Source of the DNA: Catajapyx aquilonaris
Taxonomy: Eukaryota
NCBI GenBank assembly: GCA_000934665.2
Contig: KZ538424.1
Location: forward strand, 1 to 64,000
Reading direction: 5' to 3'
DNA: 64,000 bases
Positions 2,251 through 55,555 of this stretch are shown one piece after another. Each line of letters begins with the position of its first letter. Within the stretch, counting starts at the first letter, position 1. A program made the translations under genes and the position numbers. The notes beneath the pieces are model-generated. The model was not told the origin of the DNA. It saw only the letters and a program-made list of their open reading frames with translations, and did no database searches.

Positions 2251-2290
2251 TTAATAACTTATCCAAAGGGCTCAAGAGTATATTAAGTAC

Positions 2291-9353: not shown

Positions 9354-9704
9354 GATTTGTTTGTCTGTAATACCCAGTGATAGGACCGGGGGCCCTCCTA
9401 AGGGGGGAGGGTGATCTCCCAACAAGGGGGTAAGCACTTCATGGAACTGGTGTACAGAGTTCCCATGGAACTGGGTGGAACCACCTGGTTCCAGGAACTG
9501 GTGTACAATTTTTTGGGGAGTGATTACCTCCTTGGTTCCCAAGGAAGGGTCCTTTAACATAGTCATTTCTGACCCTCTTAAATACCAGACCTTTTCTCTT
9601 GGCCCTGGGCAGAGAAGGGAGTGCAATTCTGCCCAGACTTGTTGAGTGAAAAGTGGAAAAAGACCAGTAGCATAGCCACTAGAGACTAGACCATCACGTC
9701 CCCC
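9354..9704 (-). mobile_element. Probable retroposed SINE-like insertion (family D)
   Basis: 16-bp direct repeat TACCATTTCATCCCAT at 9338-9353 and 9705-9720; A-box-like head on the minus strand. Confidence 0.55.
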
Positions 9705-27028: not shown

Positions 27029-27307
27029 TTTCACTCCCTGGCTGACTGCAGGCATCATAACTACCATTATTGGTAAGGAAGGTTTTATGTCAATTTTGTG
27101 CTCAACCTAAAAGTACGTAACATTGTTGAGATTGCATAAGTAGGCTACTGTCTGAGGGTTCCTCATTATGGGGTGTTCAAGTTATGTAATACCAACCACA
27201 TTCCAAGCAATAAATTTTGAACTTGCTGCACATTTAATCAATTTGAAAAAATTATTTTACAAGCCCTTTAGTTTATAGGAATCTAAGGAACCTTGGCAGT
27301 ACCACCC

Positions 27308-27678
27308 AGCCCATGGACACTACCCCTACAGTCTTATCTTATCACCTGCCGGGGGGTTTTACATGAGGTGCTCACTTGAGAGCGCCATGAGACCTTTCAC
27401 ATCTGTATTATGTGGCGACCTCAATGGGATCGCGCTGAACTTTATAGATACAAAAGGGAAGGCGCTACATGCGAGGCCAACATGGCCGCCGGCGACCACG
27501 CTGGGTCCCCCAATGTAGCACTTCCCTTTTGTACCTATAAAGTTCAGCGCGGTCCCGTTGAGGTCTCCACATAATAGAGATATGAAAGGTCTCATGGCGC
27601 TCTCAAGTGAGCACCTCATGCAAAACGCCTGGCAGGCGGTAAGTGGGAGTGACCAGACCTGAGTATTCTAAGATCATG
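27308..27678. mobile_element. Palindromic insertion (arms within 27338-27643) between the AP5Z1 and IR-1 3' ends
   Basis: Near-perfect inverted repeat of about 300 bp; 9-bp direct repeat GTACCACCC; absent at about 42060 in copy 2. Confidence 0.75.
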
Positions 27679-27837
27679 GTACCACCCCTCTTTTTACTTC
27701 CTTTAATAACTTTACAATCAATTTTGAGTCTTTTGATTTGGAATCATTATTTTGATTCAGGGACCATGCAGTGGAGAAATAAACATGGATTTACCTTACA
27801 TACAGTAGCAGTATGTCACATACAATTTGCCCCTTCA

Positions 27838-29844
27838 CTATTTCAAATAGCCGTGCTGTAGGAGGTGATATATTGTTGCTGATAGTGATCTTGGTTCATT
27901 TTGTAGCGCTGCTGGTACTCTCTTTTTTCTCATGTGATGGCCCACAATTAGTTCCACTATAAAACTGATGCAAGCTGATCCAAGCCCAAAGAAAAGCACC
28001 AAAAGACTTCCAAAAAAATTTGCTGCCGCCAGGGCAGCAACACCATCTTCTGCTGATTCTTCCTCTTTGGCTTCTCCTTCATTTTGCCTCTTCTCTTTTC
28101 CTCTCTGTGTTGCTGCTTCTTGATGCATTTTCTCCCATTGCTGCATCATTCCTCTGTCTAGAATGGTTTGCAATATTCTGTTCAAGGTTGCTTTGTAGGC
28201 AGCATTTTTTGGGACACTCCAACTAATTCCAACACGAAAAGATTCTGGAGGAGCCAAGTACAATGGGGTGAGGCCAAAACGATCAGTGTACTTTTCGTTG
28301 ACTGCATCTTTAAATGCACCTAAGTAAAGGATGCAAGCGTACTTGTGGTTCTGCAGAACTTGATCCAGGCACTGGTATTTGTCCTTGATAAGTTCCAAGC
28401 TATTAGCTAGTGTTTGAAAGGTTGGATTTTCTGATTCCTTGAGGAGTGTAAATGCAGCACCTCCAATGAAATGTAGTGCCCAACTGAAGTCTGATGTTGC
28501 GAGGGCCTCAAAGTTTGGGAGGGGTGCATCAGCTATCGGGAATGTGAGGAATGTAATCAACTTGCTCTTGTATGCAGCTACAATCACAATAGAGAAGAGC
28601 CACCAGAAACCAACAAACACTCTGCATGCAATATCCAATTTTGTATCATCAATCCCTTGTTCAAGCAATGCACCATAAGTGAAACTAACAGAGTAGTGTA
28701 TAAAAGCACTTTTTTTTGCATGGCTTTTGAGCAAGCAATGTTCCCGCACAAGAAGAAAATTGAAAATGGGCCCCACTATCAAGGATGTGATCCCAATCGC
28801 TACCCACATTTCAGTTGTGTATGGCCACACCACTGCTTCCCACCGAAGACTCTTGACAGGAAAGGCAGTTGAAAATGTGAGGTACTCATAAGTTAAGGAG
28901 GTGGTGAAATCAACCACTTGATAACGTTGGTATGTGAAACCCACTCCTAAAGATAAATCAGCCCTGTCATGATAGATTTCACCAACAATGCCAACCCATG
29001 TTCCATTCGGATTCTTTAAGCCAAATCCATCAGTGTTACTCAGAATGTAAGTGAAATTGAGACCTTTAGACACAGATTCTACCACATACTTGTGGGGGCC
29101 ATTAGTGAGAATGTACTCATCACCTCTCTTCTCACATGCCGCAAGGAAAGATTCATTTTTAATGATGAGGCGTAGGCGGGCACCACTAAATGTCCGAGTG
29201 AAATCAGGAAACAATTCCCACTGTGAGTCACGCGTAACTTCACTACCATTGAAACTGCCAACATGCATCTTCTTGGGCTGTCCTTCATTGCAGAAGTTGC
29301 ATGAAGTCACAAGATTCACTTTGGTATCATCCTCATCTGCAGTCACAATTGTTGCCTCCAGCTTATACCGTAAGAGTTGAATTTGCTTTATATCCAGAAC
29401 CTGTGCACCAGATTTGAGGTTCCGATTCCAAAATATAAATCGTTGATGTTCAGGGTATAACTTGATCATCTCATGACCTGCGTCCATCAGATTCTCCAAA
29501 TTTGCAATATCTGAGATAAAGATGTTTGCCATGCAATGGGATGCCACTTGGTTGACAGGAAAAGTTATCTCAGCCTCACTGTAACTTTTCACTTGGGGTG
29601 TTCTGATAATGAGGAAAGGACGGAAGCAGGAGTTCATTTCTTGGATGAGGTTAAGGAATGGTTGGGGTAAAGATTGGTAGTCATGAAGGAAGAAAGGACT
29701 GCACTCAGGGATCTGGTCCAAGAGGAGGACAAGCAATGTGTTTGCCATAGTCACTTCAGGAGAACTGACCAACACATTGTCCACTGTTGGCATGTCTGAC
29801 TTGCAACTCACAATAAGAAATAAGCATACTGCTGCTGTCAGCAT
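27838..29844 (-). CDS. Divergent ionotropic receptor (variant iGluR chemoreceptor) IR-1, intronless, 668 aa
   Basis: Signal peptide; S1 motif NGTWVGIVGEIYHDRADLSLG..TYQRYQVVDFT; M1 WPYTTEMW; pore LLEQG; WWLFSIVIVAAYKSKL; S2 lobe; final TM helix. The first ATG is at 29844 (the ORF track start at 29856 is GTG). Confidence 0.93.
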   Translation of the reverse strand: MLTAAVCLFLIVSCKSDMPTVDNVLVSSPEVTMANTLLVLLLDQIPECSPFFLHDYQSLPQPFLNLIQEMNSCFRPFLIIRTPQVKSYSEAEITFPVNQVASHCMANIFISDIANLENLMDAGHEMIKLYPEHQRFIFWNRNLKSGAQVLDIKQIQLLRYKLEATIVTADEDDTKVNLVTSCNFCNEGQPKKMHVGSFNGSEVTRDSQWELFPDFTRTFSGARLRLIIKNESFLAACEKRGDEYILTNGPHKYVVESVSKGLNFTYILSNTDGFGLKNPNGTWVGIVGEIYHDRADLSLGVGFTYQRYQVVDFTTSLTYEYLTFSTAFPVKSLRWEAVVWPYTTEMWVAIGITSLIVGPIFNFLLVREHCLLKSHAKKSAFIHYSVSFTYGALLEQGIDDTKLDIACRVFVGFWWLFSIVIVAAYKSKLITFLTFPIADAPLPNFEALATSDFSWALHFIGGAAFTLLKESENPTFQTLANSLELIKDKYQCLDQVLQNHKYACILYLGAFKDAVNEKYTDRFGLTPLYLAPPESFRVGISWSVPKNAAYKATLNRILQTILDRGMMQQWEKMHQEAATQRGKEKRQNEGEAKEEESAEDGVAALAAANFFGSLLVLFFGLGSACISFIVELIVGHHMRKKRVPAALQNEPRSLSATIYHLLQHGYLK

Positions 29845-30735
29845 TATAGCTGGCACACTGTCATTAGTTGTAACAGGTCAATAAGAATTTTACACTGCAC
29901 TAAGATATATTAAGAACTTATTATGGGTTTAACAACGTGAAGAAATACCAGCACTCTTATGTCCCACTCTTACCGAAAGAAAAAGTCAGATACACATTTG
30001 TTTTCCTTTTATTCAGAAACAGGCCATTAGGAAGGTCATTAAGATTTAAATGACCATTACAACTGAGTGAAGAATGTGACATAACCAGTCATGCTCTGAC
30101 AGAGTGATTAGGGAAAAATGAATGGTACAAATCATATGTGGACAGCTTTCCAATTGCTTGGGAAAGTTGTCATCTATAGTACTATGGATTGACATGAGAT
30201 GGAGAGATGGATTAGATTTAATCTGCCTTTGCTAACCAAAACACTATATCCTTGGAAACCTCCACTGGAATACCAATCAATATTAATATGACCCACATTC
30301 ATCTATAAGGATGAAACAAGGGTCATGCATAATACACTCTATTGCCTAAGACCTAAGTATTGGGCCACCCGCACCCCCAAGAAATGGAGTAGTGGGGTTA
30401 TAAACAAGATGTGATAAAAAGTTTCCATTAAGATTATCTGGACTTTAGAATGAATAATTATGAATAGTAACAATTTAGCTAGGATGATACCAAAGTTGAA
30501 GTTAATTTGACAATTAACAACTGAAATAAATACGATTATACCTTGGACAGTGAATTTCTGTGGGGTCTGATAAACATTGCTTCCACTATGTTTATTTCTT
30601 ACACACAGTGGGATATAAATATTAATAACGAACTGCAGGAGTCACGCAAACCCCAAAACTATATTGAGATTAATTACAAAAAATCTACTACGGAATTAAA
30701 AAATATTTATCATGGCTTGCAGATATGAAATTTTC

Positions 30736-31020
30736 GGACACATTTGACCTTACTGGCGTGCGGGAGGCAGGCTGCGTCGTAAAGGCAAGGACAAAGGATA
30801 GGCGTGTATCCGCTGAAGATAGGTCTGTATGGCTGAAGATATCTCTGTATCCGCAACTCCGCAAAGAAGGAAGGTTAGGTTAGGTTAGGTTGGTACAGCA
30901 TACCCTTTCCCAAATCCAAAAAATCAATCTTTGCATCCTTGTCTTTGCGACACAGCCAAGCTGCCCTCAGCCACCACTCACCCTGCCCCCTCCCGCATGC
31001 CAGTAGGGGTTACTCTTTCC
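30736..31020. mobile_element. MITE with a (GGTTA)n core and 8-bp TSD AAATTTTC
   Basis: ACCTTACTGGCGTGCGGGAGG / CCTCCCGCATGCCAGTAGGGG inverted ends. Confidence 0.7.
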
Positions 31021-31268
31021 AAATTTTCTGTGCTTTTTTGAATTAAGGAATTTTTAAAGTCATTTTACATTAGTTGAATAGAAATTTTTTGTCATAGCAC
31101 GTGGGACTGAGCTATAAATAAACAATACTATCACATTTTAATTTATTAATAAATTCATTCATTCATTCATATACATCATGGCTTTTCCCAAATATTGGGG
31201 TGCCAGCGGATAATGAGGAGCAGGTCCTCCTTACCCTCACATGACCATTATATATATTTTTAAAAAAG

Positions 31269-31506
31269 AGGGGCGACACGGTGGCGGAGTGGTTAGCGCC
31301 GCAGCCTTCCACCTCTAAGGTCCCGAGTTCGATCCCCGGATCGGACAGAGGATACTTATGTGGATAGAGTTTCGATGGGTTCTCTCCGTGTTCGCGTGGG
31401 TTTTCTCAGGGCTCTCCCGTTTCCTCCCGCAAAGGCAATGATTAAAGTTGGTTAATTAAAAAGATGATCCCCTAACAAAGCCCAAGGAGGCTTATCACGG
31501 GGTATC

Positions 31507-31572
<66 letters not shown>
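31269..31572 (+). mobile_element. tRNA-derived SINE family B, full length, with a V-domain-like core GGGTTTTCTC..GTTTCCTCCC
   Basis: A/B boxes, (ATT)n tail, TSD ATATTTTTAAAAAAG. Confidence 0.85.
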
Positions 31573-31577
<5 letters not shown>

Positions 31578-31840
31578 TTTTAAAAAAGGAAGAAAATCTG
31601 GAGCCTGGTCAGGTACCCGCAGATAATGGGGGGAGGGGAGTACAAAATNAAATGTGGTACAGCAAACTGTATCAATTTCTGAAGAAATCCACTAGCATAA
31701 ATATTTTTCAATTCCGTGGCAGATTTTAAAAAATTAATCTCAATACAGTTTTTGGGTTTGTGTGGCCCCTCAGGTTCGCTATAAATATTTATATCCCGCT
31801 AAGTAAGAAATAAAATAGTGGAAGCCATTTTTATCAGACC

Positions 31841-32122
31841 ACCGAAGCAGTTTGGAGTAGGGGATAATTATGGTGTCCGACTGATAATAATCGGGAGGTC
31901 CTGGGATCAAATCCCGGGGCCGGCAACTCTGACGGTGGTTTTCTGTGGTTTCCCACGGTCCTTCCAGGAAAATTCCGGAGTTGTTTCCGTAATTAATAGG
32001 CCACAGCCACTTCCTTCCGTCCCTATCCTATCCCAAAAAGTGCAGTAAAATGAAGCTAAGAGGTCCAGGCAAAACAAAAAACTTCCCCCCTAAAGAGCCT
32101 ATAGGCTGATAATGGGGTATGA

Positions 32123-32181
<59 letters not shown>

Positions 32182-32194
32182 CATCATCATCATC
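31841..32194 (+). mobile_element. SINE family A inserted in the right TIR of the Tc1-like element
   Basis: TSD ATCAGACC; (ATT)n(ATC)n tail. Confidence 0.85.
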
Positions 32195-32676
32195 ATCAGA
32201 CCCCACAGAAATTCACTGTCCAAGGTATAATCATATTTATTCAGTTGTTAAATGTAAAATTAACTTCAACTTTGGTATCCTCCTAGCTAAATTGTTACTA
32301 TTCATAATAATTATCCATTCTAAAGTCCAGATAATCTTAATGGAAACTTTTTATCACATCTTGTTTATAACCCCACCACTCCATTTCTTGGGGGTGGCCC
32401 AATACTTATGGCTAATTCCACGCGTGACTTAAACGACATGACACTCAGTTCATTCAAGAGCCTAACTATTAATTTTTTTAAAGCACAAACTTAGCTGGCA
32501 GTATGTATCTTGTAAGTGTTAATTAATGTTTTGATTTTAACAGTTGCACATTTCATTTGAGTTATATAAATATATAAGGAATTCGTGACTTACATGACAA
32601 GGAAGCCACTGGTAACAGAGGCTTCAGATATTAATGTAAAATTCTTCACATTTGTGGCTTAAATGTAAGTGTTATT

Positions 32677-33356
32677 CAATATAAATTTTGCAGTTGAATG
32701 TTTCAAATATCTGAGGTCTCTAGACAAAGATGGACATACACCTTGGCTATCGGATGTGGAGGGACTGCTCAATCAGGCTGGCTCCTCTATCTGTGGATAT
32801 TTGCAGTCGGGCGGGGACGTGGGAGCGGCCCGTGCACTAATGATTAGTACGCTGACAGATGAGACGATCACTGCGGACAGAGCTAGAATGATGGCCTCTT
32901 CGAGGTGCTCATATTATGCGGAGATTAAAGGGGACGGATTCCAGAGAGAGACTTATTTTCATTTTAATGTGCCTATTAGGGTTACCCGTTTTTTGGCTAA
33001 CCTAAGAAACAATTCACAGGTACTCTGGGTCAACCAATATAAGTTTATTTTTGCTCCCAAAGATTTATGTACCCTATGTAACACTTACCAGGAATTTGAT
33101 TTGTTCCATGTTATATACTATATGTCTGCCCTTTCTTTAAATGGGAGAGGATAAGACTACTTGAGTTTATTCCTAGAGTCCCCCAATACAGGATCTTTAT
33201 GTTATTTAATGATATTCCAGAACGGCAGATTGTGCAGGTTTATAAATTTTTTTGTGAAGTGATACAAAAACTGAATTTTTGTGATATCCAACTTAACAAT
33301 GTATTGTGTGTGCCTCCCTCCCATACGGCCTAGGCTTTGGGAGTTAAATAAATAAA

Positions 33357-33420
<64 letters not shown>
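32677..33420 (+). mobile_element. 5'-truncated non-LTR retrotransposon (CR1/L2-group-like ORF2 C-terminus)
   Basis: Peptide RFLANLR..LCTLCN..DLFHVI, (ATT)n tail, 14-bp TSD ATGTAAGTGTTATT. Confidence 0.8.
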
Positions 33421-33422
<2 letters not shown>

Positions 33423-33476
33423 GTAAGTGTTATTGTAGTGAGGATATTTTCAAAGACCCAAATTAAAATATTATTA

Positions 33477-34052
33477 CAGTAAAACTTCTATAAGTCGAAC
33501 TTCCCTAAGTGGAAGTTCTCTATAAGTCGAAGAAAATGACGAGCTTGGTTGGTCACAATGTAAAATAATAGGAAATGAACTTCCCTCCCTCGAATTTCTA
33601 TAACTCGAAGTGCTGGCAGGGCCTTAAGATGGGATATCAATGCATTTCCAGTCTCCCTAAGTCGAAGTTCATGTTGGCGAGTATGGAAAATTTTCCCATT
33701 TCCCAGCCGAAGGGTCGAGAGTAGGCCACATGTAGAGAAAGGCTAAATTTCCTGATCTCCGTCTACCAGACGTACCGAAAGAAGTGTTTGACTCGATTGT
33801 GAATCCTTGAATCTAAGAGTGGGCCACCATCACGGAGTTTTTTTTTTTTTTACACCAAAACAACGAGGAACATTGTAAGTGTATAGGGACAGTTATTTTG
33901 AAGATTGAAAACCTTTTGTCACTGGATATTTAGGTAAGCTTCCTTATAGAATTCTGTGCTTTAAAAAATCCAAACTTCTCTAACTCGAATCTTCTATAAT
34001 TTGGAAGTTTTTTCCCGGTTCCATGGAGATTCGACTTATAGAAGTTTTACTG
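33477..34052. mobile_element. pogo/Tigger-like MITE
   Basis: TA-CAGTAAAACTTCTATAAGTCGAA / TTCGACTTATAGAAGTTTTACTG-TA. Confidence 0.85.
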
Positions 34053-34214
34053 TATGTGAACTTGGTGTTATGTTATTAATTCTACATGAAATAAATTATT
34101 TCTTTTGTGACTTACACGACACTTTTGTACTCAGTGCTTTCTAATTAGATTCGTGAGAAGAATTTTGGATTTTAGGACATAAAGTAATCTCTCTTATTAT
34201 AATATGTTATTTTA

Positions 34215-34363
34215 TTAACCTCCTGATGCCCAGCGTACAGTCCTCTAGCCATTGGGGTTTAAAATTTTTGAAAAATTTTTTTTAGATTTTTTTTTTTTCT
34301 TTCTAAAAATTAAAAAATTTAAAAAAAAATCAAAAAAAAAAAATCTGGGCTTCGGGAGGTTAA
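34215..34363. mobile_element. Small TTAA-flanked MITE (piggyBac-like)
   Basis: TTAACCTCCTGATGCCCAG / CTGGGCTTCGGGAGGTTAA. Confidence 0.7.
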
Positions 34364-36554
34364 AATGTTTAAATGATAGGCCTACATGAGAATATGCAGG
34401 GCTACAATTCTTATAATTAACAATTGAACATGTATAATGTATGTACCCGTATGTACCTGAGCAGACAGCAGTGGATTCATTGCATTGTCATGTGAGATGG
34501 CCAGGTGTGATACGTGATGGTCATCCCTGGCCACCTTGTCATGGGATATAATGCCATGAAGGCAGAATGTCTATGCAGGCTACTACAATGTACGTAGTCT
34601 ATATGTGTATAAATTGTCTATAAATTGGTATAACTTGCCCAACAAAGCATGTAGTGAGTTTTGTACATTATATTTGCAGTCAAGGACAATCCAGTTATCT
34701 GCTTTGTTATCTGTAAAACTATAAAAGCGGATTCACTACTATTTGTAGATTCTGCAGACAAATTACACGTCTGGGATGAATTAGCTGTATGAGTTTGTGG
34801 TACAATGTCTTTAATAAGTTGAGTTGTCCCCCCCTCCTATCCCTACCCTGTCCCTGCACGATAGTGGTAATACACTCCCCTAAGAGGGCCTATGGCCTAT
34901 GGCCGGGGTATATCTAAAAAATAACAAAAATATAAAAAAAAATTGAGTTAAAAATAAACAATATAAAACTCAAAAATGGAAGCATTGGAAAGAAATGTCC
35001 AAGTGTACTGAAATAATGCAATTTTCTTGGCCAAGAAAATAAACAACTTCTTTTCTAGTAGGAGTCCACATTTCATCAAGCGTGGCTATTCTTCTTTCAA
35101 TATCCTTTGATCCAATGAATTATAATATTAATAATTAGATAAACTCTATGGTCAACTTCTGCAAATTCTCCAGCTGTGTTTGGATCAAACTGTCTGGCAT
35201 TGATGGCTTCTCAAATTCTACATTTTATACATTCAAAGCTTCTCTCTCACTAAAAGTCCCAAATTTTTTAAAAATTACACCTTTCTTTTTACCTTTCCAA
35301 TGCACTTATCTAGGACAGCTCTTACTTCCCTTCTTTCTTTAACTACGACATTTGCTTCTTCTTCCATTCCACTACTATAAGTTCCATTTTAACAGCCGGG
35401 AAACAATAGTGACAGTGGCATCCAAGCGGAAACGTGACTTACACGACAAAAATTAAATGGTCATAACAATGTTCAGACAAATCTCGTATTACCTCAACAT
35501 TATTTTTATTATTTGAAGGGTACTACTGTGTAGTGAGAAGGTAATGAATATCAACTTTTAGATTCTGGTACTACAGCTAAAAAATTTAAAAATGTCACAA
35601 AATTGTGACTTAAACGACACACCAAGATGGTATTTAAACTGGCTAATTTTTATGCTGAATAAGTCGTTGCAATGGAAAGATAAATATATGGTACATGCAT
35701 CCAGTTCATATGTGATAGAAATCACAGTTTACTGTATGAAAAACACTAGCTTGTTGAATTATGAAGATTTTTATGGAGCCTTAGAACAAAGAAATTTGCA
35801 CACCCGCCATATTGGAAATAAACAGTGCTGTTAGCTTGAACGTATGTGACAGTTCTCTAATATCTGTTCAAAAATGTTAAAAATACACAATCTCAGCTTT
35901 CAGAAAAGATCATAATATCATAGAAATTATTCATTTTAAAATCTGACCCTTATGTATACTTTTGCATGGAATTAGCCTTATGCAATAGAGTTGTAGGAGC
36001 CCTGTCCGTCATTGCCCATGAAGAATGCAACAGGCCCTGACTGTCACATTAATATTTAATTGTTCCATTCCTGTGTGACAGATTCTTGCAGATAGTTATC
36101 ATATTAGATGACCCATCTCATGCAATGCAATGGCTTGATTTTTTGTTAGGTTTGTACCCCTGTGGGTGTACTTAACTTGAGCTTTTGCTTATATAAGTTG
36201 TTAATTTTTTGCATAAGACAGTATTGTAAGGGTATTGTAATTACGTCGTGCAGCAAGTTTAACCTCAACTTACGTGACCTTGAACCACTTTTCTACTCTT
36301 CCTCTTGTGCAGTTTTAAAATTCGTTCTGATGACCGCTGCTTGCGGTTCATAGTTCAACTCTGACATAGCCGTGATCATTGTGTCTTCCTATAGCCCTAT
36401 CAACTATTCCATATCCTAAACACAAACGTTACTGCTTGTAGTTGTGGCGGAAATAAATAGAGCAGGCAGGAGGAAAATCGGGAAGAGGGGGGGTGGGGGT
36501 CGCCCTTGTTTCTGCCCCCACCAAAGATTCGCCCTGGATCTGCCACTGAGATGA

Positions 36555-37235
36555 CAGTGTGGCCTATTATTTTAGGAAACAACCCCGGCATTTACCTGGA
36601 GGGACAGTGGGAAGCCACAGAAAACCACTGTTAGGGTTGCCGGCCCCGGGAATCGAACACAGGACCTGCCGATTAGCAGTCGGATACCATATCCCCTCTG
36701 CCACCACTGCTTCGGTACGTGATTGCTATTATACAGTATAAGGAAGGGACCGAAGCAGGTTGGCATAGTGGATAAGGCGTCCGACTGCTAATCGGGAGGT
36801 CCTGGGTTCGAATCCCGCGGCCGGCAACCTTGACTGTGGTTTTCTGTGGTTTTGCACGGTCTTTCTAGGATAATTCCGGGGTCGCTTCCGTATAATAGGC
36901 CACAGCCGCTTCCTTCCTGCCCTATCCTTGGAGGTTGAAAGGCAATGCTGGGCCAACCTCCTTAAATATCAATTATAAAGTATAAGGAAGGGGTACCGAA
37001 GCAGGTTGGCATGGTGGATATGGCGTCCGACTGCTAATCGGGAGGTCCTGGGTTCGATTCTCGGGGCCGACGATCCTGACCATGGTTTTCTGTGGCTCTC
37101 CACTGTCTTTCTAGGATAATTCCGGGGTCGCTTCCGTAAAATAGGCCATAGCCGTTTCCTTCCTTCCCTATCCTTGGAGGTTGAGAGGTAATGCCCGGCC
37201 AACCTCCCTAATATCAATTATAAAGTAGTATAAGG
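36555..37235. repeat. Cluster of SINE-A heads: one inverted copy plus a roughly 245-bp tandem unit repeated twice
   Basis: Unit ATTATA(C/A)AGTATAAGGAAGGG-ACCGAAGCAGGTTGGC...CCAACCTCC..AATATCA at about 36728 and 36972, with the start of a third unit at about 37217. Confidence 0.75.
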
Positions 37236-37615
37236 CAGGGGAGAGGGAAGAGAGGGCTGAGAGGGCGGTTTTTAAATTTTCCAGCCTATGTGAGCCTATA
37301 CATGCCTGGGTGAGGCAATATAGTACTCAGCAGTCGAGTTCTCATTGCTTAGATTTTAGGTGGCTGGGGCCTGAAGGAAAAATTATTATGAAATACATTA
37401 AAATGTGGGTAACAATAATTACCTTGAGAACTGTGCCAGACGAATTTGCGGAAATCGTTGTACTTCGCGTAATTAAATAAATTTGGGAGTGCCGAAGTAA
37501 CAGGCACGCCGCAGATAAGTATTAATTTAATTCTCGCAAAGCATACGTATAGACTTCAGCAAATTCGTCTGGCACGGTTCTCAAGGTAGTTGTTACGTAT
37601 ATTTTAATCTATTTC

Positions 37616-37622
<7 letters not shown>

Positions 37623-37655
<33 letters not shown>

Positions 37656-37942
37656 TTAATAATAAATTCATACCCCGTTATCAGCCTATCGGCTCTTTAG
37701 GGGGGAAGTTTTTTGTTTTGCCTGGAACTCTTTGCTTTCATTTTACTGCGCTTTTTGGGATAGGATAGGGATGGAAGGAAGCGGCTGTGGCCTATTAATT
37801 ACGGAAGCAACTCCAGAATTTTCCTGGAAGGACCGTGGGAAACCACAGAAAACCACGGCCAGAGTTGCCAGCCCCGGGATTCGAACCCAGGACCTCCCGA
37901 TTAGCAGTCGGACGCCTTATCCACTATGCCAACCTGCTTCGG
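37623..37942 (-). mobile_element. SINE family A inserted in one arm of a foldback element (about 37369-37965)
   Basis: TSD TCTATTTCATAATTA; near-identical to 6114-6389. Confidence 0.85.
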
Positions 37943-38513
37943 TCTATTTCATAATTAAATCAGGCTAACAGTTGGCCTGTAGTACTTGAATTTTGAGTTT
38001 TACAGCTATCTTCTGTAAAATTAATTTAGGAACTTCTAAACGAGTAAAGTTGTTTGCATCACATTCGTAGTGTATAGACTAGGCTCTACTTGTAACTCCG
38101 TGTTTTTTCTCTCTTTACTATCTACGAGTAGCTCTTCCATTATGTGTTAGGCCTTCCTGTACTTACGTCTTTGGTCATTGTCAAGAGGTACCGTACCTAG
38201 AAGGAGTTGATACTCGAATTTCCCCAGAATTGATTCGAGTTATTACTTCACAAAAGCCACAGTTTTGGGACATGCTGCTGTTACAAGTCAGTACCAAGAA
38301 GAACACAAGTCTTGAAGAGTAAGTTATCCATATTGTGCAGTTGAAGAGCTCCAGTGTAATATACTTACCTTCCAGTGTGACAGTGTTGCTAAAAGCAGTC
38401 GCCAGCTTCCATTCTCATCCCAGAGTGCCTGATAGTAGCGATGCAACCCTTTGTCTTCTTCATGTGTTCCTCGAGAAAGCTTTTCAAGAAGAGGACAGCG
38501 GCACTGCCTCCCA

Positions 38514-38775
38514 ATTTTTAATTTTTCCCGTCCCAAGGCAAAACCCACTATATGCTGTTTCGGTAATTTTACAGGAAAAAATAATTTCCATTCTTTCCCC
38601 ACACTTTGCCATACGCCACACGCCACTTTGCCACACGTTTTTCTCGGCGTGGGATTGTGGGAGGACGATGGCAAAAATAGCTATATGTGGGACTTCATGC
38701 GGCCGTTCACGCTGCATGTGTAACTCATTTTCGGGCAAAACTGCATAATTATAGTGGGTTTTGCCTTGGGACGGT
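38514..38775. mobile_element. MITE interrupting an AP5Z1 pseudo-exon
   Basis: TIR CCGTCCCAAGGCAAAACCCACTA; same family, opposite orientation, at 44955-45211. Confidence 0.85.
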
Positions 38776-40418
38776 GTTGATATCTGCTATATTCAAATGA
38801 TTGTTTCTCTTGTATGGACCTGATAATCATTGCATTAAGGTGAGAGAGTATGTGTATAAATGTGTATGGTAATATAACTGGCCTGAAATGAATTATTCCT
38901 ATTTCAGCATCACGGGAAAACTTCTTGGAGATGTCCTGTTGGAGAAGCCGCAGCTTCTAGTAGACTTTAGGTCTGAGTTTATGGGTTTTCTTGCCAAGCC
39001 CAATAATAATTTTACATTCTGCCAGGAATTGTATGGTGCTTCTTTACAAAGTTTGGGAGAATTTGCAAGCTGTCAATTGTCTGGGTAAGTTCAGGTAATG
39101 GTGACTCACAAAATATGAGCACAGAATAAGTGTAGGCCTAAGAATTCAAGATTGATAATTTTATACAGGGTAGTACATAGCCCAAACGAACTCCTTCAAC
39201 ACTGGGCCATGGTAAAACATGATTGATTACTTACAGCTTTGCGTGTGAATTTCCACTGGATCCTGTACAATTGGAACAAGTAATCAATCACGTTTACTCC
39301 CACCTCACTATTAAAGATGTTTCCTTGGCCAGTGTACCAGCTTGTATAAAAGCAGAATAAGTGTTCCTTATATAAAAACTACAAACCTGATTGCACACTG
39401 TAAAATTTAGGGGTTGTTGTAGCCACAAAAATGTAAAAAAATACTCCAGCTATGTTCGACATGACAGAGACGAATCCCCCAGATGTGCACATCTCCCATC
39501 AATGAGGCAGGTGCAGGATGCTGCTTGTGTTGTGGTGGTGATTGATAATAATGAGCAGATGATGTCAGGCTGCACCAAGCAACCTGGCAGATATATGAAT
39601 TGCCAAGAGTGCATTGGTTCTTATTTGTGTGAGAATGACAATCTTACATGGAGTAAGGTTTAGCAAGTATTAGAGCTACAACACCTCTCACGATTATCTT
39701 TCTAGCAAGACAGTTAGAATTTCTTGTCTTTGGTCTAAGCCTATGGCAAACTGAACAGTCCCACTCTTTTAGATTCACATAGCCTGGGGCGAGTGGGGGT
39801 GGGATCATCCCTCTCTTGCTTCCAGGCTTGATCTGGGATCCACATGCCTGTACAGGGTGTTCAAAGTATATTAGTACTTTTAGTTATAGGTAACGTTGCT
39901 TGAAGCTGTTATATTTTGTAGCTTGTGGCACATGGGTTCGTGGCATAGAGTAAATACCAATACGTTTGATATAAGATGCAGGGGCAATGGAATACTTTCA
40001 TGAACTTGGGAGAGTACTATGAACTTCACATGAGTAAAGAGTAGAGCAGTTAATAAGTCCATACTTTGGAACAATAACTTTTAATGTGTTATAAAAAATA
40101 ATGGCTGCTAATATCAGGTTCAGTTAGTTACATATTTTTTCTAACCACTGCAGGGTGTCTAAGTCTCCCACAAAGTTGGGTAGCCTATGTGCAGTGATCA
40201 CATATCACAGGGTTCTGAATGGGCCATTAGCAATTCTTCATTTCCAAAATTCATTGTAATTCAGAGCCTGAAGGGATTATTACATTCAAACTACTCTTAC
40301 CAGCTCATATTCTGATAGTCTGTAAAATTAAATGCCCTAAAATGGCTTGGTAATAAGATTTTGTGAATGAGAAATTTTCCAATGAAAGAGACTTCAATTT
40401 TATTGGAACACACCATAT

Positions 40419-40645
40419 GAGGGGTTGGGTGCAAGAATGGCCCATCCAGCACTGATGAGCGAAAATGAGATTTTTCTGCTATTGTGTAGCTACTAGATGC
40501 AAAACCTTCCCGAGTTTGGATGGGTCCTGGTACCTTTAAAAAATATATTAGTTACTTCCAGGATGTAAGGAGAACTTCCCACAGTACAACTTTATTTCTC
40601 AAATTGCACTTTGTGTGGATGGATCCTTCTTGCACCCAGCTCCTC
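40419..40645. mobile_element. MITE with GAG termini and 4-bp TSD ATAT (Sola2-like)
   Basis: GAGGGGTTGGGTGCAAGAA / TTCTTGCACCCAGCTCCTC. Confidence 0.7.
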
Positions 40646-41470
40646 ATATATTTGACCTAAAATGATAGTAGAAATTATTCCCAAGATATTTTCCAGGGAA
40701 CTTTGAAATTACAGTATTATAATATCACTGACACTCCATGTAACATTTGTGAAGTCAATCCTCCAATGGCTAATTGGATTGGTGTAAAATGAGAATTCAT
40801 TTTTATTTATTAATATTAATATGCTGCAGGGCCAGCTTCCGCATAAACATGACTCAGCTGAACTATTATTTTCAGGGAGCCAGCAGGTTTGAAAACATTG
40901 CAAGGATACTTCAATGTTCTGTAGTGCTCTATGCTTGAACTCCTAAACTGGCCTATGACAGAAGTGAAATGGGAAATGCTGGATATGTTTGCTGTGACAC
41001 CCACAAGGGTAAGATGCATATTTCTTAAAACATATGTGACATTGACAAAGCCATTTCAATAGATGGCAGCAAGACATCATGACGTAATTCACAGGACAAT
41101 GTTGTGCTTGAATAAAATTGTTCAACACATGTCAAGAACATACACAGAGCATGAGTACCCAGAGGCAGCCAAGGAAATAGTTGAATTGCGGGTGACGGAT
41201 TTCTTGTCTCTTCTCAAAGACCCAAGGTAGGTACATGATTTGGCCATCACAAACAAGTTCACCTGTATATAATGGCATCTATCCTCCACCCACCTCTTTT
41301 GAACAGCATTGCAACAATGGTGTTTTGCACGTAATTTCACTCCCTGGCTGACTGCAGGCATCATAACTACTATTATTGGTAAGAATGGTTTTATGTCTTT
41401 GTACCGTACTCAACCTAAAAGTATCTAACATTGTTGATATTGCATAAGTACTGTGTGAGGGTTGCTAATT

Positions 41471-41922
41471 TTTTGTTTGTTTTGTTTTACCCCATTGGAG
41501 GGAACGAAGCCCTTTTAGGGGGGGTGGATTACCACCATTTTTTCTTACGAATTTTCTTTCGAAATTTTTCTCTCTGGTGCAGGTATCAGGATAGGGATTT
41601 ATGAAGAGGGGACACTGGTTCAAGTGTGTTGCCTTTATGTTGGGGGTAGTGTGCAGTCCCCCAGGGGGTCAGGTTGCAAGACACCCCCTAGGTGTGGGTT
41701 GGAAACTCCCCACCGACACTGCACCTCCCCATGGATAGGTCAAGGATAGGAAAGGAAGGGGGCTGGTGTGGCCTATTGTTTACAGAAGTGACCCGGAGTT
41801 TTCCTGGGAGGACCGTGGGAAACCACAGAAAACCACGATCAGGATCCCAGGCCCTGGGACTCGAACCGAGGACCTCCCGATAAGCAGTCGCGCGCCTTAT
41901 CCACTCCACCAACCTGCTTCGG
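41471..41922 (-). mobile_element. SINE-A-related element with a longer, different 3' tail, specific to duplication copy 2
   Basis: Family-A head at 41745-41922; flanks GGTT(G/C)CTAATT; empty site at about 27158-27168. Confidence 0.75.
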
Positions 41923-42214
41923 TTCCTAATTATGGGGTGGTCAAGTTATGTAATGCCAACCACATCACTAGCGATAAATTTTGAATTTATTGCTGCACAT
42001 GCAATCAATTGAAAGTTATTTACAAAGCCCCCTTTATAGGAATCTAAGCAAACTTCACAGTACCACGCCTCTTTTTACTTCCTTTAATAACTTTCCAATC
42101 AATTTAGAGTCTGTTGATTTGGACTCATTTGATTCAGGGACCATAAAGTGGAGAAATAAACATGGATTTACCTTACATACAGTAGCAGTATGTCACATAC
42201 AATTTGCCCCTTCA

Positions 42215-44221
42215 CTACTTCAAATAGCCGTGCTGTAGGATGTGATATATTGTTGCTGATAGTGATCTTGGTTCATTTTGTAGCGCTGCTGGTACTCTCT
42301 TTTTTCTCATGTGATGGCCCACAATTAGTTCCACTATAAAACTGATGCAAGATGATCCAAGCCCGAAGAAAAGCACCAAAAAACTTCCAAAAAAATTTGC
42401 TGCCGCCAGAACAACAACACCATCTTCTGCTGATTCTTCCTCTTTGGCTTCTCCTTCATTTTGCCTCTTCTCTTTTCCTCTCTGTATTGTTGCTTCTTGA
42501 TTCATTTTCTCCCATTTCTGCACCATTCCTCTGTCTAGAATGGTTTGAAATATTCGGTTCAAGGTTGCTTTGTAGGCAGCATTTTTTGGGACGCCCCAAC
42601 TAAGTCCAACACGAAAAGATTCTGGAGGGGCCAAGTACAATGGGGTGAGGCCAAAACGATCAGTGTACTTTTCTTTGACTGCATTTATAAATGAACCTTG
42701 GTAAATCATGCAAGCGTACTTGGGGTTCTGCAGAACTAGATCCAGGCACTCGAATTTGTCCTTGATGAGTTCCATCCGATTAGCTAGTGTCTGATAGGTT
42801 GGATTTACTGATTCCTTGAGGAGTGTATATAAAGCACCTCCATCGAAATGTAGTGCCCACCTGAAGTCTGATCTTGCGAGGGCCTCAAAGTTTGGGAGGG
42901 GTGCATCAGCTATTGGGGATGTGAGGACTGTAATCAACTTGCTCTTGTATGCAGCTACAATCACAATAGAGAAGAGCCACCAGAAACCAACAAACACTCG
43001 GCATGCAATTTCCAATTTTGTATCATCAGTCCCTTGTTCAAGCAATGCACCATAAGTGAAACTAACAGAGTAGTGTATAAAAGCACTTTTTTTTGCATGG
43101 CTTTTGAGTAAGCAATGTTCCCACACAAGAAGAAAATTGAAAATGGGCCCCACTATCAAGGATGTGATCCCAATTGCTACCCACATTTCAGTTGTGTATG
43201 GCCACACCACTGCTTCCCACCGAAGACTCTTGACAGGAAAGGTAGTTGAAAATGAGAGGTACTCATAATGTAAGGAGGTGGTGAAATCAATCGCATGATA
43301 ACGTTGGTATGTGACACCCACTCCTAAAGATAAATCAGCCCTGTTATGATAGATTTCACCAACCATGCCAACCCATGTTCCATTTGGATTCTTTAAGCCA
43401 AATGCATCGGTGTTATTGAGAATGTAAGTGAAATTGAGAGCTTTAGACACAGATTCTACCACATACTTGTGGACGCCAGTAGTGAGAATGTACTCATCAC
43501 CTCTCTTTTCACATTCAACAACGAAAGAGTCATTTTTCATGATGAGGCGTAGGCGGGCACCACTAAATGTCTGAGTGAAATCAGGAAACAAGTTCCACTG
43601 TGGGTCACTCATAACTGCACTACCATTGAAACTACCAACATGCATCTTCTTGGACTGTCCTTCATTGCAGAAGCTGCATGAAGTTAAAAGATTCACTTTG
43701 GTATCATCCTCATCTGCAGTCACAATTGTTGCCTCCAGCTTATACCGTAAGAGTCGAATTTGCTTTATATCCAGAACCTGTGCACCAGATTTGAGGTTCC
43801 GATTCCAAAATATAAATCGTTGATGTTCAGGGTAAAACTTGATCATCTCATGACCTGCGTCCATCAGATTCTCCAAATTTGCAATATCTGAGATAAAGAT
43901 GTTTGCCATGCAATGGGATGCCACTTGGTTGACAGGAAAAGTTATCTCAGCCTCACTGTAACTTTTCACTTGGGGTGTTCTGATAATGAGGAAAGGACGG
44001 AAGCAGGAGTTCATTTCTTGGATGAGGTTAAGGAATGGTTGGGGTAAAGATTGGTAGTCATGAAGGAAGAAAGGACTGCACTCAGGGATCTGGTCCAAGA
44101 GGAGGACAAACAATGTGTTTGCCATAGTCACTTCAGGAGAACTGACCAACACATTGTCTACTTTTGGCATGTCTGACTTGCAACTCACAATAAGAAATAA
44201 GCATACTGCTGCTGTCAGCAT
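42215..44221 (-). CDS. Divergent ionotropic receptor IR-2, intronless, 668 aa; recent paralogue of IR-1 (about 90% aa identity by eye)
   Basis: Uninterrupted ORF, collinear with IR-1, with the same S1/M1/pore/S2 motifs. Confidence 0.93.
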   Translation of the reverse strand: MLTAAVCLFLIVSCKSDMPKVDNVLVSSPEVTMANTLFVLLLDQIPECSPFFLHDYQSLPQPFLNLIQEMNSCFRPFLIIRTPQVKSYSEAEITFPVNQVASHCMANIFISDIANLENLMDAGHEMIKFYPEHQRFIFWNRNLKSGAQVLDIKQIRLLRYKLEATIVTADEDDTKVNLLTSCSFCNEGQSKKMHVGSFNGSAVMSDPQWNLFPDFTQTFSGARLRLIMKNDSFVVECEKRGDEYILTTGVHKYVVESVSKALNFTYILNNTDAFGLKNPNGTWVGMVGEIYHNRADLSLGVGVTYQRYHAIDFTTSLHYEYLSFSTTFPVKSLRWEAVVWPYTTEMWVAIGITSLIVGPIFNFLLVWEHCLLKSHAKKSAFIHYSVSFTYGALLEQGTDDTKLEIACRVFVGFWWLFSIVIVAAYKSKLITVLTSPIADAPLPNFEALARSDFRWALHFDGGALYTLLKESVNPTYQTLANRMELIKDKFECLDLVLQNPKYACMIYQGSFINAVKEKYTDRFGLTPLYLAPPESFRVGLSWGVPKNAAYKATLNRIFQTILDRGMVQKWEKMNQEATIQRGKEKRQNEGEAKEEESAEDGVVVLAAANFFGSFLVLFFGLGSSCISFIVELIVGHHMRKKRVPAALQNEPRSLSATIYHILQHGYLK

Positions 44222-44954
44222 ACTGCTGCTGTCAGCATTATAGCTGGCACACTGTCATTAGTTGTAACAGGTCAATAAGAATTTTACACTGCACTAACAA
44301 ATATTAAGAACTTATTATAGGTTTAAAAACATGATGAATTACCAGCACGCTTATGTCCCACCTTTACAGACAGAAAGAGGCAGATACACATTTGTTTTCC
44401 TTTTATTAAGAAACAGACCATTAGGAAGGTCATTAAGATTTAAATGGCTATTACAATTCAGTGAAGAATGTGATATCACCAGTCATGCTCTGACAGAGTG
44501 ATTAGGGAAAATGAATGTTACAAATCATATGTGGACAGCTTTCCAATTGCATGGGAAGGTTGTCATCTACTATGGATTGACATGAAATTGAAAGATGGAT
44601 TAGATTTAATCTGCCTTTGCTAACCAAACTAAACACTATATCCTTGGAAACCTCCACTGGAATACCAATCAATATTACGATGACCCACATTCCTATAAGG
44701 ATGAAACAAGGGTCATGCATATAGGAGACCTGTCTATCATTGCCCATGAAGAATGCAACAGGCTCTGCCTGTAACGTTAATATTTAATTGTTCCATTCCT
44801 CTGTGACAGATTCGTGCAGATAGTTATCATATTAGATGACCCATCTCACGCAATGCAATGGCTTGATTTTTTGTTAGATTTGTACCACTGCGGGTGTACT
44901 TATAACTTGAGCAACTTGCTTATATAAGTTGTTAATTTTTTGCATTAGTATTGT

Positions 44955-50319: not shown

Positions 50320-51623
50320 CACTTACAACTTGACAGGTACAGCTCTATATTGGCAATGACTGCTCACTGTATGGGAAACTGGAGAAGTACGTCTCCTTAA
50401 AAAGTAAAGGGGGGTTGTTCCTTTTCAAGTGTCACTCTCAGAGACATTTTTAAAGGCTTAATTTATTGAAACGGACCTTCCTCAGTAGTTGGGAAGTATT
50501 GATTGCAACATTCGTCTAAGCACCTGAGGCTTCCCATGCTCCATAGTAATAAGTACGCATTCGGGGAATTTGGCTTGTCAGTTAAACTCTTCATTGTATT
50601 TCATTTATATGCTGTTGCAACCATTGTCAATATGTAATGCTAACAACGGATACATTCTGACAGCAGTATTCTGTACACTAGTTTACACATTTTGTTTGAA
50701 GTGAATATTACTTCACATAAAAATTCTCAGTTGTGCAATGGTGTTATGAAACACTGACAACCTTGTAATACATTGCCTACTTGCTTATGGGATAAGACAT
50801 AAGATGCATACCAGTACTGTACAACATGGGTGAAATGTTAAATGTTTCACTGGATTGCATTATAAAGGCAATATTTTTTATGATTGAAAGGTAATCCAGA
50901 ATTATGGAAATATTAATGGAATGCTGAATTTTTCTGTGTCCGTTTTTACCGATCACATTACTAAACACATAATTGGGGAAGAAAAACGAAATATTCACTA
51001 CAATGTCAATTACTACAAAATCACAGGGGAAATTTATATATGAAGTATTGTTTTGGTTACAATTTCATGTTTATGAGATAAAGTTACATAGCTTACTATA
51101 ACTTATATGCAGTGAATCATGTCTACTGTATAACACACCATAATAGATACGGAGAACACTTTTCCATTGCAGAATTTATGTTTGCTTTTGGTGCAAGATT
51201 TTAAGTGCATATCAGCTGCACATAACAGCAATCTGATCAGTACATGAAATGATTGCAAAATAAAGTGATATCTGCTATACACATGTTTATACTGACTGCC
51301 TCATAACAATAAAATTTTAGCTTTATCAATTATTTAAGTTTGTTTGTAAGTGCTTTCTTCACTGAAGAACATACTGTCCTTCAACATTGTGCCATTTGCC
51401 ATTCTGCACCCTCACAGGCACCTCTTTTGCAGATATTTAACATCCTGTTGTAATATCTCTCCTTGACTCCTCTTTTATTGCACTGAATTATTTTGCAGAT
51501 AAGTATAATTATTGCAATGTCACTGCAAGAAGGTGGATTCACATGAAGACCTGATACTGATTAGAGCCACATTTGAGTCGAAATTGAGTTAAGTGTTCCA
51601 AGTGCAGTCATTTAAATGATGTA

Positions 51624-54640: not shown

Positions 54641-55555
54641 AGTTTTCAGCTCACCATGAATATGCCCTGTTTGTCAGTGGATGCTGAGTGACTCACTGCA
54701 ACAGAACAACTGTTTACATGACAAACAAATCTGTTCGTTTTAGCAGTCAGTTGCACAAGTAGCAGTCTTAAAAGATGAATAAATTATTGACAGCAAAACC
54801 ACAAAGGTTGGGCAATATTGATTGCAACATTCTGAGTGCGTGATGATTTTGCTTGTTTCATAATAGATGATGATGCATCCCTTGAAATTGTCCTGAAAAG
54901 CCAACTATCTTACTGTAATTTCAACGTAATTAAAGTTGAATGCACATAAATTCAGGCAACAAGTGCATTTTATTTGCCATTAAATATATATATTGTGACT
55001 TGACATGTAACTATAGATATATGGTAGGTGTTACAGAGGTAATAATACAAACATTACTTGCAGAATAATTATATTAGGTTCATGAAAAATCCATGTGACG
55101 TTTGGAGTCATAGAGGTTCTGCCTGGTACTTTGTCATTGTCATTGCTGTATTTGTGGCTAATAAATGTGGCATGTTATTTTCTTTGTTTTTACAGACTGT
55201 GCTTTTCTTTCCATCTGAAATATATCCTATGACATAATAATATTATGTGCAACAATTTGAAGGGGAAATAGGTACCGTATATAAAATACAGATGTCTTGG
55301 GGTGGAATTTAAGGAATATGAGCGATTGCATGTGTGATAACTTGCCTACATTTCATAATGATATTAAAAGCATAATCATTTTGGCATTAATTAATTAATT
55401 TGTGGATTGTTACTAATGCCAATATATGCCAAAATTAAAAATAAATCTGAATTAATACAACATGAAGCCCAATTTTTTTATATTCCAATATTCTGAAATA
55501 TAGAGTAATATATTCTGAAATATAGATAGAAATTGTGTAATAATTATATGTTATT

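Follow-up and report, generated by a model that had tools for sequence, protein, structure and literature searches.

The question raised by this locus is whether two neighbouring ionotropic receptor (IR) genes are held alike by gene conversion while selection diversifies their ligand-binding lobes, as an earlier note on the sequence had proposed, or whether their uneven divergence has another origin. The locus lies in a 64,000-nucleotide stretch of Catajapyx aquilonaris DNA (contig KZ538424.1, positions 1 to 64,000; hereafter the window). IR-1 (27838-29844), an ionotropic-receptor gene of the variant ionotropic glutamate receptor (iGluR) type, and its paralogue IR-2 (42215-44221) are single-exon open reading frames (ORFs) of 668 codons each with 89.5% amino acid (aa) identity. 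They form part of an array of five uninterrupted ORFs, each 668-689 codons long and all within 34 kb of the window, together with IR-3 (48298-50319), IR-4 (52625-54640) and IR-5 (59675-61744); all five genes, and all features within them given below, lie on the minus strand. The reading that we consider probable is that IR-1 and IR-2 are a young tandem pair with a fast-evolving ectodomain, a channel kept by purifying selection and one later gene conversion at the 5′ end.

The gap-free alignment of the two genes contains 97 differences in 2007 nt and 70 differences in 668 aa. Nonsynonymous (dN) and synonymous (dS) divergence and their ratio (omega) were estimated per region by the Nei-Gojobori method (NG86), with domain limits taken from an AlphaFold2 model of IR-1. 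Codons 1-178, which belong to a low-divergence tract, gave a dS of 0.009 and a dN of 0.010 (omega 1.08). Immediately beyond, at the end of the N-terminal domain (codons 179-216; 29197-29310), 8 of 38 residues differ (dS 0.102, dN 0.104, omega 1.02), followed by 20 of 127 in the S1 lobe (codons 217-343; 28816-29196, and 43193-43573 in IR-2; dS 0.060, dN 0.079, omega 1.32) and 28 of 149 in the S2 lobe (codons 437-585; 28090-28536, and 42467-42913 in IR-2; dS 0.076, dN 0.091, omega 1.20). Only five replacements each were found in the segment of M1, pore loop and M3 (93 codons, 344-436; 28537-28815, and 42914-43192 in IR-2; dS 0.068, dN 0.023, omega 0.34) and in the linker, last transmembrane (TM) helix and tail (83 codons, 586-668; 27838-28089, and 42215-42466 in IR-2; dS 0.054, dN 0.027, omega 0.50). 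The by-eye split of the aa differences in the earlier note, 4 in residues 1-177, 28 in 178-343, 3 in 344-425, 30 in 426-585 and 5 in 586-668, proved exact on recounting. Its claim that divergence is confined to the ligand-binding lobes holds in so far as the differences are concentrated in the ectodomain, but not strictly, because they become dense from codon 179 on, 38 codons before the ligand-binding domain (LBD) fold.

The silent sites tell the causes of conservation apart. With the partitions of the earlier note, dS is not uniform along the gene, being 0.009 in the N-terminal part against 0.054-0.081 elsewhere (0.058 for M1-pore-M2 and 0.054 for the C-terminus), and S1/S2 have a dN/dS of 1.1-1.4, which is not well below 1. 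Nonsynonymous differences are much more frequent in S1+S2 (63/764 sites) than in channel and C-terminus (8/384; p=1.4e-5), and synonymous differences show no such difference between the LBD and channel plus C-terminus (p=0.64). Indeed, the dS of the LBD (0.068) and the divergence of aligned non-coding DNA (~0.05) are similar to the dS of the channel and C-terminus, which when pooled gave an omega of 0.41 and a dS of 0.061, with nonsynonymous differences below the neutral pool defined below (p=0.003). As synonymous divergence is ordinary and nonsynonymous divergence low, the channel and C-terminus are conserved by purifying selection on the protein and are not homogenised. Thus, the homogenisation proposed for the regions outside the lobes exists in the stretch of codons 1-178, and it is absent from the channel scaffold; gene conversion does not keep the scaffold identical, given the ordinary dS of M1-pore-M2 and C-terminus and the 4-6% divergence of the non-coding DNA.

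The low-divergence tract starts 59 bp ahead of the ATG and ends at codon 178 (29311-29903 in copy 1 and 43688-44297 in copy 2, the latter being 17 bp longer owing to a duplication at the start codon); over its 593 bp the copies differ by 5 substitutions and one 17-bp indel. The upstream flank (29904-30331) carries 33 substitutions in 428 bp together with 5 indels, so that the adjacent non-coding DNA indeed differs visibly, the downstream 400 bp are 7-9.5% diverged, and the next 200-bp windows on both sides likewise reach 7-9.5%. Compared to a neutral pool made up of non-coding blocks, the upstream DNA and those synonymous sites that lie outside the tract (175/3218), the tract is depleted of differences both at all sites (p=2e-8) and at silent sites alone (1/172, p=0.002). 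Within it lies the longest identical run of the alignment, 274 nt (29459-29732 = 43836-44109), slightly longer than had been reported; the interval 29460-29730 was given correctly, and its partner 43838-44108 is one base off, as 43837-44107 gives 0 mismatches. The offset between the genes is 14377 (0 mismatches over 29460-29730), and an offset of 14378 produces 194 mismatches. Random placement of the 97 differences yielded a run of 274 nt in about 7 of 100000 trials.

Such a bounded segment, with silent divergence far below that of both flanks, is the mark of a gene-conversion tract, and its boundary at codon 178/179 falls within the N-terminal domain rather than at a domain border, with aa divergence rising to 21% just beyond. 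Because near-identity is flanked on both sides by 7-9.5% divergence, the simplest reading of the alignment would be one bounded interlocus gene conversion of ~0.6 kb. From the tract divergence of 0.008 against ~0.054, this event would fall within about the final sixth of the interval since duplication. Another near-identical patch was found in non-coding DNA downstream of the gene (26703-26902, counterpart ~41013-41212), with 1 substitution in 196 aligned sites and surroundings 4-9% diverged (p=4e-4 against other non-coding sites, for a window picked post hoc from ~25). It may be a second short conversion tract, and its presence makes patches of this kind look like a by-product of mutation rather than a means of keeping the scaffold identical.

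The domain limits used above rest on a clear family and fold assignment. All five genes passed the Pfam gathering cut-offs for both Lig_chan (PF00060) and Lig_chan-Glu_bd (PF10613), with E values of 4.4e-17 and 7.5e-9 for IR-1, respectively, and sequence matches in the PDB include GluD1, GluD2, GluA and GluK (best E=2.7e-22). The AlphaFold2 model of IR-1, built from a 45-sequence alignment with a mean predicted local distance difference test (pLDDT) score of 81.9, predicts a signal-like N-terminal helix, an alpha/beta N-terminal domain (~29-205), S1, channel helices (344-372, 378-393 and 405-434), S2 and the last transmembrane helix (607-640) in this order, as in a bilobed S1S2 clamshell split by M1, pore loop and M3 and followed by M4. 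Residues 217-585 of the model match LBD crystal structures (GluA2, GluK and ctenophore) with Z ~27 and a root-mean-square deviation of 2.0-2.4 Å over 240-246 residues, and Foldseek returned full-length iGluR chains (E ~1e-25). The structural match to the LBD begins at residue 217-222, so that ~215 residues precede S1, with no full-size amino-terminal domain; synaptic iGluRs carry ~400 residues in this place. No Pfam family was detected at a credible score in the N-terminal 215 aa of IR-1 and IR-3.

IRs are reportedly told from iGluRs, by a criterion ascribed to Benton and colleagues in 2009, through the loss of at least one glutamate-contacting residue, namely an Arg in S1, a Thr in the first half of S2 and an Asp/Glu in the second half of S2. 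HMMER alignment to GluD1 suggested that the S1 ligand-binding Arg is retained as Arg307, a residue that is nearly invariant in the family alignment. The position of the S2 Thr, as aligned to GluA1, is occupied by A in IR-1, L in IR-2 and S in IR-3, IR-4 and IR-5, and the Asp/Glu position is non-acidic under both available alignments, being Y507 by eye or K/I512 by HMMER with low confidence. The glutamate-contacting residues therefore appear to have been lost in part, as expected of a variant IR. Among ESM-Atlas clusters, the nearest ones are labelled as arthropod 'Ionotropic Receptor', the phylum being assigned from those labels alone. A word-indexed protein search returned a single relative, a springtail protein with 28% identity, and an exhaustive HMMER search of a 1.84-billion representative library returned 3779 relatives at E <=0.001, the best 150 of which share 23-36% identity with the query (no more than 36%, and this along part of the sequence, or ~30% along most of it); neither search yielded an orthologue. 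The five genes are lineage-specific single-exon tandem genes of the 'divergent IR' type, in the sense used in the available part of Croset et al. 2010 (PMC2924276).

In the ectodomain outside the tract (codons 179-343 and 437-585), 56 of 314 residues differ, with an NG86 omega of 1.22. Values of 1.25 for the LBD by the same method and of 1.38 for S1+S2 by pairwise Goldman-Yang maximum likelihood (kappa 1.76) were obtained, and LBD nonsynonymous divergence (63/764) exceeds that of non-coding sites (154/2893; p=0.003, or p=0.005 with synonymous sites added). In all three pairs of IR-3, IR-4 and IR-5, S1 and S2 are the most conserved parts of the protein (omega 0.10-0.22, dN 0.12-0.27), with a dN of 0.12-0.39 for N-terminus, channel segment and tail, although these omegas are rough, dS being near or beyond saturation. 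Judged by these figures, the LBD omega of IR-1/IR-2 would be 6-10 times the value of the other paralogues, an apparent reversal of the long-term pattern of the family. No indel separates the coding sequences (CDS) over 2007 bp, where the non-coding rate would predict 17 (P=3e-8), and neither copy holds a stop codon (probability 0.02 under 97 random substitutions); because of this, IR-1 and IR-2 do not appear to be freely decaying pseudogenes. With IR-3, IR-4 and IR-5 as outgroup (identity ~34%), 15 changes were polarised as IR-2-derived and 16 as IR-1-derived, leaving 39 of 70 unpolarised. Conversion from IR-3, IR-4 or IR-5 into the LBD of either gene was considered and set aside, as ~34% aa identity is too low.

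We then come to where in the LBD the replacements fall. Pocket positions were mapped via sequence alignment rather than 3D coordinates. An S2-only query against PDB sequences gave no iGluR match and chance matches only (E >=0.13), and a longer query (codons 380-650) was used in its place for the pocket alignment. HMMER aligned the loop I/D460-G-G-A463-A/L464-F/Y465 (IR-1/IR-2) with E-A-G-S-T-K of GluA1, and G539-I/L540 with the G-Y of its K-G-Y-G. Position 464 thereby corresponds to the S2 Thr of the glutamate triad and position 540 to Y732 of GluA2. The equivalents of Glu705 and Met708 (Y507 and A/S510) come from the by-eye alignment, HMMER being of low confidence there, and GluA2 residue numbers other than those of Y732 and the Arg are presumed ones. 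Among 11 contact-equivalent positions, four (460, 464, 510 and 540) differ between IR-1 and IR-2, and 12 of the 38 positions within two residues of a contact equivalent differ against 6.6 expected (p=0.016). The enrichment at the pocket is modest, with many changes elsewhere, including ahead of S1. When polarised with IR-3, IR-4 and IR-5, five IR-1-derived changes near the S2 loop (R454S, D460I, Y465F, Y476F and R482S) remove polar groups, which would fit a more hydrophobic cleft in IR-1; a 43-sequence outgroup polarises only Y465F and R482S among them.

In IR-2 alone, the first 17 nt of the CDS are duplicated in tandem (44205-44238); IR-1 has them in single copy. The new upstream ATG at 44238 is out of frame and opens a frame of 7 codons whose stop overlaps the main ATG at 44221. 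Provided that transcription begins upstream of this new ATG, it should reduce IR-2 translation or move initiation downstream. The duplication may be an early disabling or regulatory change. As it lies inside the tract, it is probably younger than the tract. In both copies, a 6-codon mini-ORF is located directly upstream on the minus strand (29845-29865 and 44239-44259), in the putative 5′ untranslated region (UTR); its stop overlaps the next ATG (TAATG), which is the start codon in IR-1 and the new upstream ATG in IR-2.

On the reading that we favour, IR-1 and IR-2 would have arisen as a young tandem (segmental) duplicate pair in a five-gene single-exon array of the arthropod 'divergent IR' type. 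Since that duplication, dated by a neutral divergence of ~0.05-0.07, replacements would have built up at the neutral rate or slightly faster from codon 179 on and throughout S1 and S2 in both copies, and ordinary purifying selection would have continued on the channel helices and C-terminal tail, where synonymous divergence is normal. A later, single interlocus conversion of ~0.6 kb, reaching from 59 bp ahead of the ATG as far as codon 178, would then have erased the 5′ divergence, and the five substitutions and the 17-bp duplication of IR-2 would have arisen in the tract after it. We infer that both genes are functional and that part of the ectodomain change is an adaptive retuning of ligand specificity beyond relaxed constraint. 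Several observations weigh against this reading. The S1+S2 omega is not significantly above 1 when judged against synonymous sites (likelihood ratio test (LRT) p=0.27; Fisher test of nonsynonymous (Nd) versus synonymous (Sd) differences p=0.67), so that the ectodomain rate can be explained by relaxed constraint and nothing else. The non-coding baseline, against which the LBD is faster, is perhaps biased low, as it consists of alignable blocks only and includes one near-identical patch. The four direct pocket hits of 11 are not significant (p=0.10), and variability within the family is only a little higher at LBD sites that changed than at those that did not (entropy 2.52 vs 2.25, p=0.07). With the 43-sequence outgroup, 17 changes are IR-2-derived and 8 IR-1-derived (p=0.11; 45 of 70 unpolarised), and given this lean together with the out-of-frame upstream ATG, IR-2 may be losing function. 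Few sites underlie the silent-site evidence for the tract (synonymous 1/113 inside vs 21/325 outside, p=0.02). A single N at 31649 separates the copies and the only DNA runs found stem from one sample, so that the paralogy of the two genes depends on the assembly.

The most serious competitor makes do with no adaptation: the copies would be redundant, the ectodomain would drift under relaxed constraint, IR-2 would be on its way to a pseudogene and the tract would be an unrelated neutral event. An LBD omega not significantly different from 1, the upstream ATG created by the 17-bp duplication and the lean of the 43-sequence outgroup towards IR-2, with some changes at conserved positions (F435S at 81%, I505M at 93%), are all as it would predict. 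However, when omega averages 1.2-1.4 across 314 codons of a folded domain, structural constraint like that of the paralogues (0.10-0.22) can be accommodated only if omega exceeds 1 at some sites, and the LBD dN stands above the non-coding rate. IR-1 likewise shows derived changes at conserved positions (Y465F, F614L and R482S), and the decay of a pseudogene is hard to reconcile with two copies free of stops and indels whose channel is still constrained. We regard this explanation as rather unlikely, yet as one to be taken seriously. At the other extreme stands the proposal from which we started, in which ongoing conversion homogenises the whole gene and diversifying selection excludes it from S1/S2, leaving a peak of divergence at the pocket. 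It draws on the concentration of aa differences in S1/S2, on the one homogenised tract with its possible second non-coding patch, on an older 5′ mosaic in IR-3/IR-4 described below and on a model established for other duplicates, as far as the available part of PMC3924837 describes it. It founders on the channel and tail, whose dS (0.068 and 0.054) is like that of the LBD and of non-coding DNA, and on ~7-kb flanks that are evenly 4-6% diverged, homogenisation being limited to the 5′ tract. This uniform silent divergence largely refutes the homogenised-scaffold model, which we hold to be highly improbable. As for its other half, selection diversifying the ligand pocket, positive selection was not demonstrated by the LRT, and outside the tract the changes are scattered through the entire ectodomain; such selection is plausible but unproven.

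Two further explanations concern the data and the tract rather than the receptors. IR-1 and IR-2 could be divergent haplotypes of a single locus, set in tandem by a short-read scaffolder. The N at 31649, a possible contig join, lies between the copies, the DNA runs containing the sequence number four and all derive from one sample of 2014, with no RNA run listed, and the run contigs switch between copies at identical stretches (joints 30204>44593 and 41305>27000). Both copies are covered by run contigs at a likeness of at least 98%, although depth is uninformative on copy number, and the run contigs neither confirm nor refute the paralogy. Against an artefact, the 6.4 kb between the N and copy 2 are non-homologous to the DNA ahead of copy 1, homology stops sharply at 30331/44721 with unrelated sequence beyond, a divergence of 10.5% in aa would be extreme for alleles, and the locus is already a tandem array with three more paralogues. 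An artefact is thus very unlikely. The near-identity of the tract could also reflect constraint at the nucleotide level, such as an exonic regulatory element, an overlapping transcript or mRNA structure, in favour of which one may cite that the start codon lies in the tract together with 59 bp of putative 5′ UTR, where a mini-ORF is conserved, and that 5′ dS is lower in IR-3/IR-4 too. Yet the opposite strand of the tract holds only short stop-to-stop frames (51-109 aa) and no long antisense ORF, and an Rfam scan of the tract returned no family. In the IR-3, IR-4 and IR-5 pairs the N-terminal region has a dS of 0.5-1.5 and a dN from ordinary to the highest of the protein, so the region is not generally constrained, and the second near-identical patch in non-coding DNA is as expected of a mutational process. 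We give this last explanation hardly any credence.

The 5′ end is also where IR-3 and IR-4 stand out. The first 812 nt of IR-3 (49508-50319, aligned with the 5′ part of IR-4 up to 54640) are far closer to IR-4 than to IR-5, and the remainder of the gene is about equally distant from both, as evidenced in the site patterns left of the break (3=4 178, 3=5 73 and 4=5 44) compared to those right of it (146, 153 and 117, respectively); the maximum chi2 of 45.3 was reached in 0 of 200 permutations. The dS between IR-3 and IR-4 is 0.51 in the N-terminal part vs 0.81-1.43 in the other parts, and their identity at third positions, which is 0.62-0.83 in windows reaching as far as codon 277, drops to 0.42-0.64 in windows from codon 253 on. 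Protein trees joined IR-3 with IR-4 in the 5′ part (95%) and IR-3 with IR-5 in the remainder (74%), and approximately unbiased (AU) tests keep the alternatives (p=0.098 and 0.29), so that the mosaic is significant only in the nucleotide site-pattern test. Upstream of IR-3 and IR-4, no homology was found except for a 26-bp local match (~50489-50515 and ~54808-54834, ~170-190 bp upstream of the starts; local score 42 vs a shuffled maximum of 31), which may be a shared promoter motif.

These patterns allow a more general, though doubtful, idea, namely that conversion is recurrently limited to the 5′ end of the array genes, having affected IR-1/IR-2 recently and IR-3/IR-4 long ago. In both cases a segment of 0.6-0.8 kb, beginning within 59 bp of the start, would be younger than the remainder, and S2, most or all of S1 and the channel would have separate histories. 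If the restriction to the 5′ end reflects selection, the N-terminal domain would evolve in concert between neighbours and the ligand-binding lobes would be free to diversify. The concerted N-terminal part might then serve a shared partner, e.g. a co-receptor or trafficking machinery, and would represent a domain-specific form of concerted evolution, of which no example in IRs was found in a literature search.

Compared to known systems, the array shares with insect divergent IRs, as far as the available part of Croset et al. 2010 (PMC2924276) goes, a single-exon tandem organisation grown by non-allelic recombination, an S1-channel-S2 layout with a short N-terminal region, and membership of the fastest-evolving IR class. 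Drosophila divergent IRs are described there as being under purifying selection (median omega 0.149-0.176), unlike IR-1/IR-2 with an omega of ~1 overall and 1.2-1.4 in the ectodomain; the term 'gene conversion' has 0 occurrences in the accessible text of that paper. In Drosophila, interlocus gene conversion has been reported between paralogous chemoreceptor genes, IRs among them (Almeida et al. 2014, PMC4122928), and the case at hand shares with it short paralogue tracts more similar than the age of the duplication predicts. In its accessible sections, PMC4122928 treats conversion as a nuisance for gene trees, without a domain-level picture.

For receptor retuning, the closest precedent is the pair of acid-sensing receptors Ir75a/Ir75b, which, according to the available text of PMC8575457, were retuned via few LBD substitutions, some of them outside the pocket, with a 'hotspot' equivalent to GluA2 Y732. 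By HMMER alignment this hotspot is our position 540, which differs conservatively between IR-1 (I) and IR-2 (L). Ir75a and Ir75b are, as described in that text, old paralogues of low identity with measured ligands, whereas IR-1 and IR-2 are ~5% diverged and known from sequence alone. The red/green opsins, to which the Teshima-Innan model was applied in the accessible part of PMC3924837, show a homogenised background (introns and most exons) with a peak of divergence at the selected sites. As in IR-1/IR-2, homogenised and diverged regions contrast within tandem receptor duplicates. Unlike in the opsins, the background of IR-1/IR-2 is evenly 5-7% diverged and interrupted by a single 0.6-kb valley, consistent with one conversion event. 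A valley in an evenly diverged duplicate is not a peak in a homogenised background, and the Teshima-Innan signature is therefore absent. No new principle is involved, since tandem IR expansion, LBD-centred divergence and occasional chemoreceptor conversion are already described in what is available of PMC2924276, PMC4122928, PMC8575457 and PMC3924837, and the pair is a clear but ordinary example of IR-family evolution. Its value lies in its youth. In very young chemoreceptor duplicates, changes in specificity are still traceable to a countable set of substitutions, here 70, of which ~12 are in or next to pocket-forming segments. Three processes can be separated along one gene: the channel is under purifying selection, the ectodomain changes at the neutral rate or faster, and a single conversion acted at the 5′ end. 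If the organism is workable, IR-1/IR-2 would make a good test case for receptor retuning.

The duplicated unit to which the pair belongs was delimited by self-BLAST as 22737-30331 (copy 1, IR-1 with flanks) and 38090-44721 (copy 2, IR-2 with flanks), broken by indels and repeats. The blocks are collinear at offsets of 14310-15626, giving a unit of ~7 kb and a period of 14.3-15.6 kb, and homology ends sharply not only at 30331/44721 but also near 27680/42060. Its four non-coding blocks (427-943 columns) contain 121 substitutions in 2465 aligned sites and 20 gap openings, with Jukes-Cantor distances, K(JC), of 0.040-0.062. The spacer between the copies (30332-38089, 7.8 kb) is rich in repeats, with word depths from ~60 to 74000 per bin and many internal direct and inverted repeats, and its 161-aa ORF (32669-33154) gave no Pfam match. 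Elsewhere in the window, four other ORFs of 157-191 aa gave no Pfam match, and none of the three ORFs of at least 150 aa tested in 1-27000 gave one either. A repeat family of ~180-330 bp occurs at 6116-6391, 31841-32172, 36748-36928, 36995-37174, 37616-37944 and 41743-41929, and Rfam recognised a tRNA-like part in three of its copies (6313-6384, 36755-36826 and 37866-37937). Given this tRNA-like part and a contig word depth in the tens of thousands, the family looks like a tRNA-derived short interspersed nuclear element (SINE). One of its copies ends ~150 bp ahead of the start of the second duplicated unit (38090). Finally, the GC skew is strongly negative at 2000-10000.

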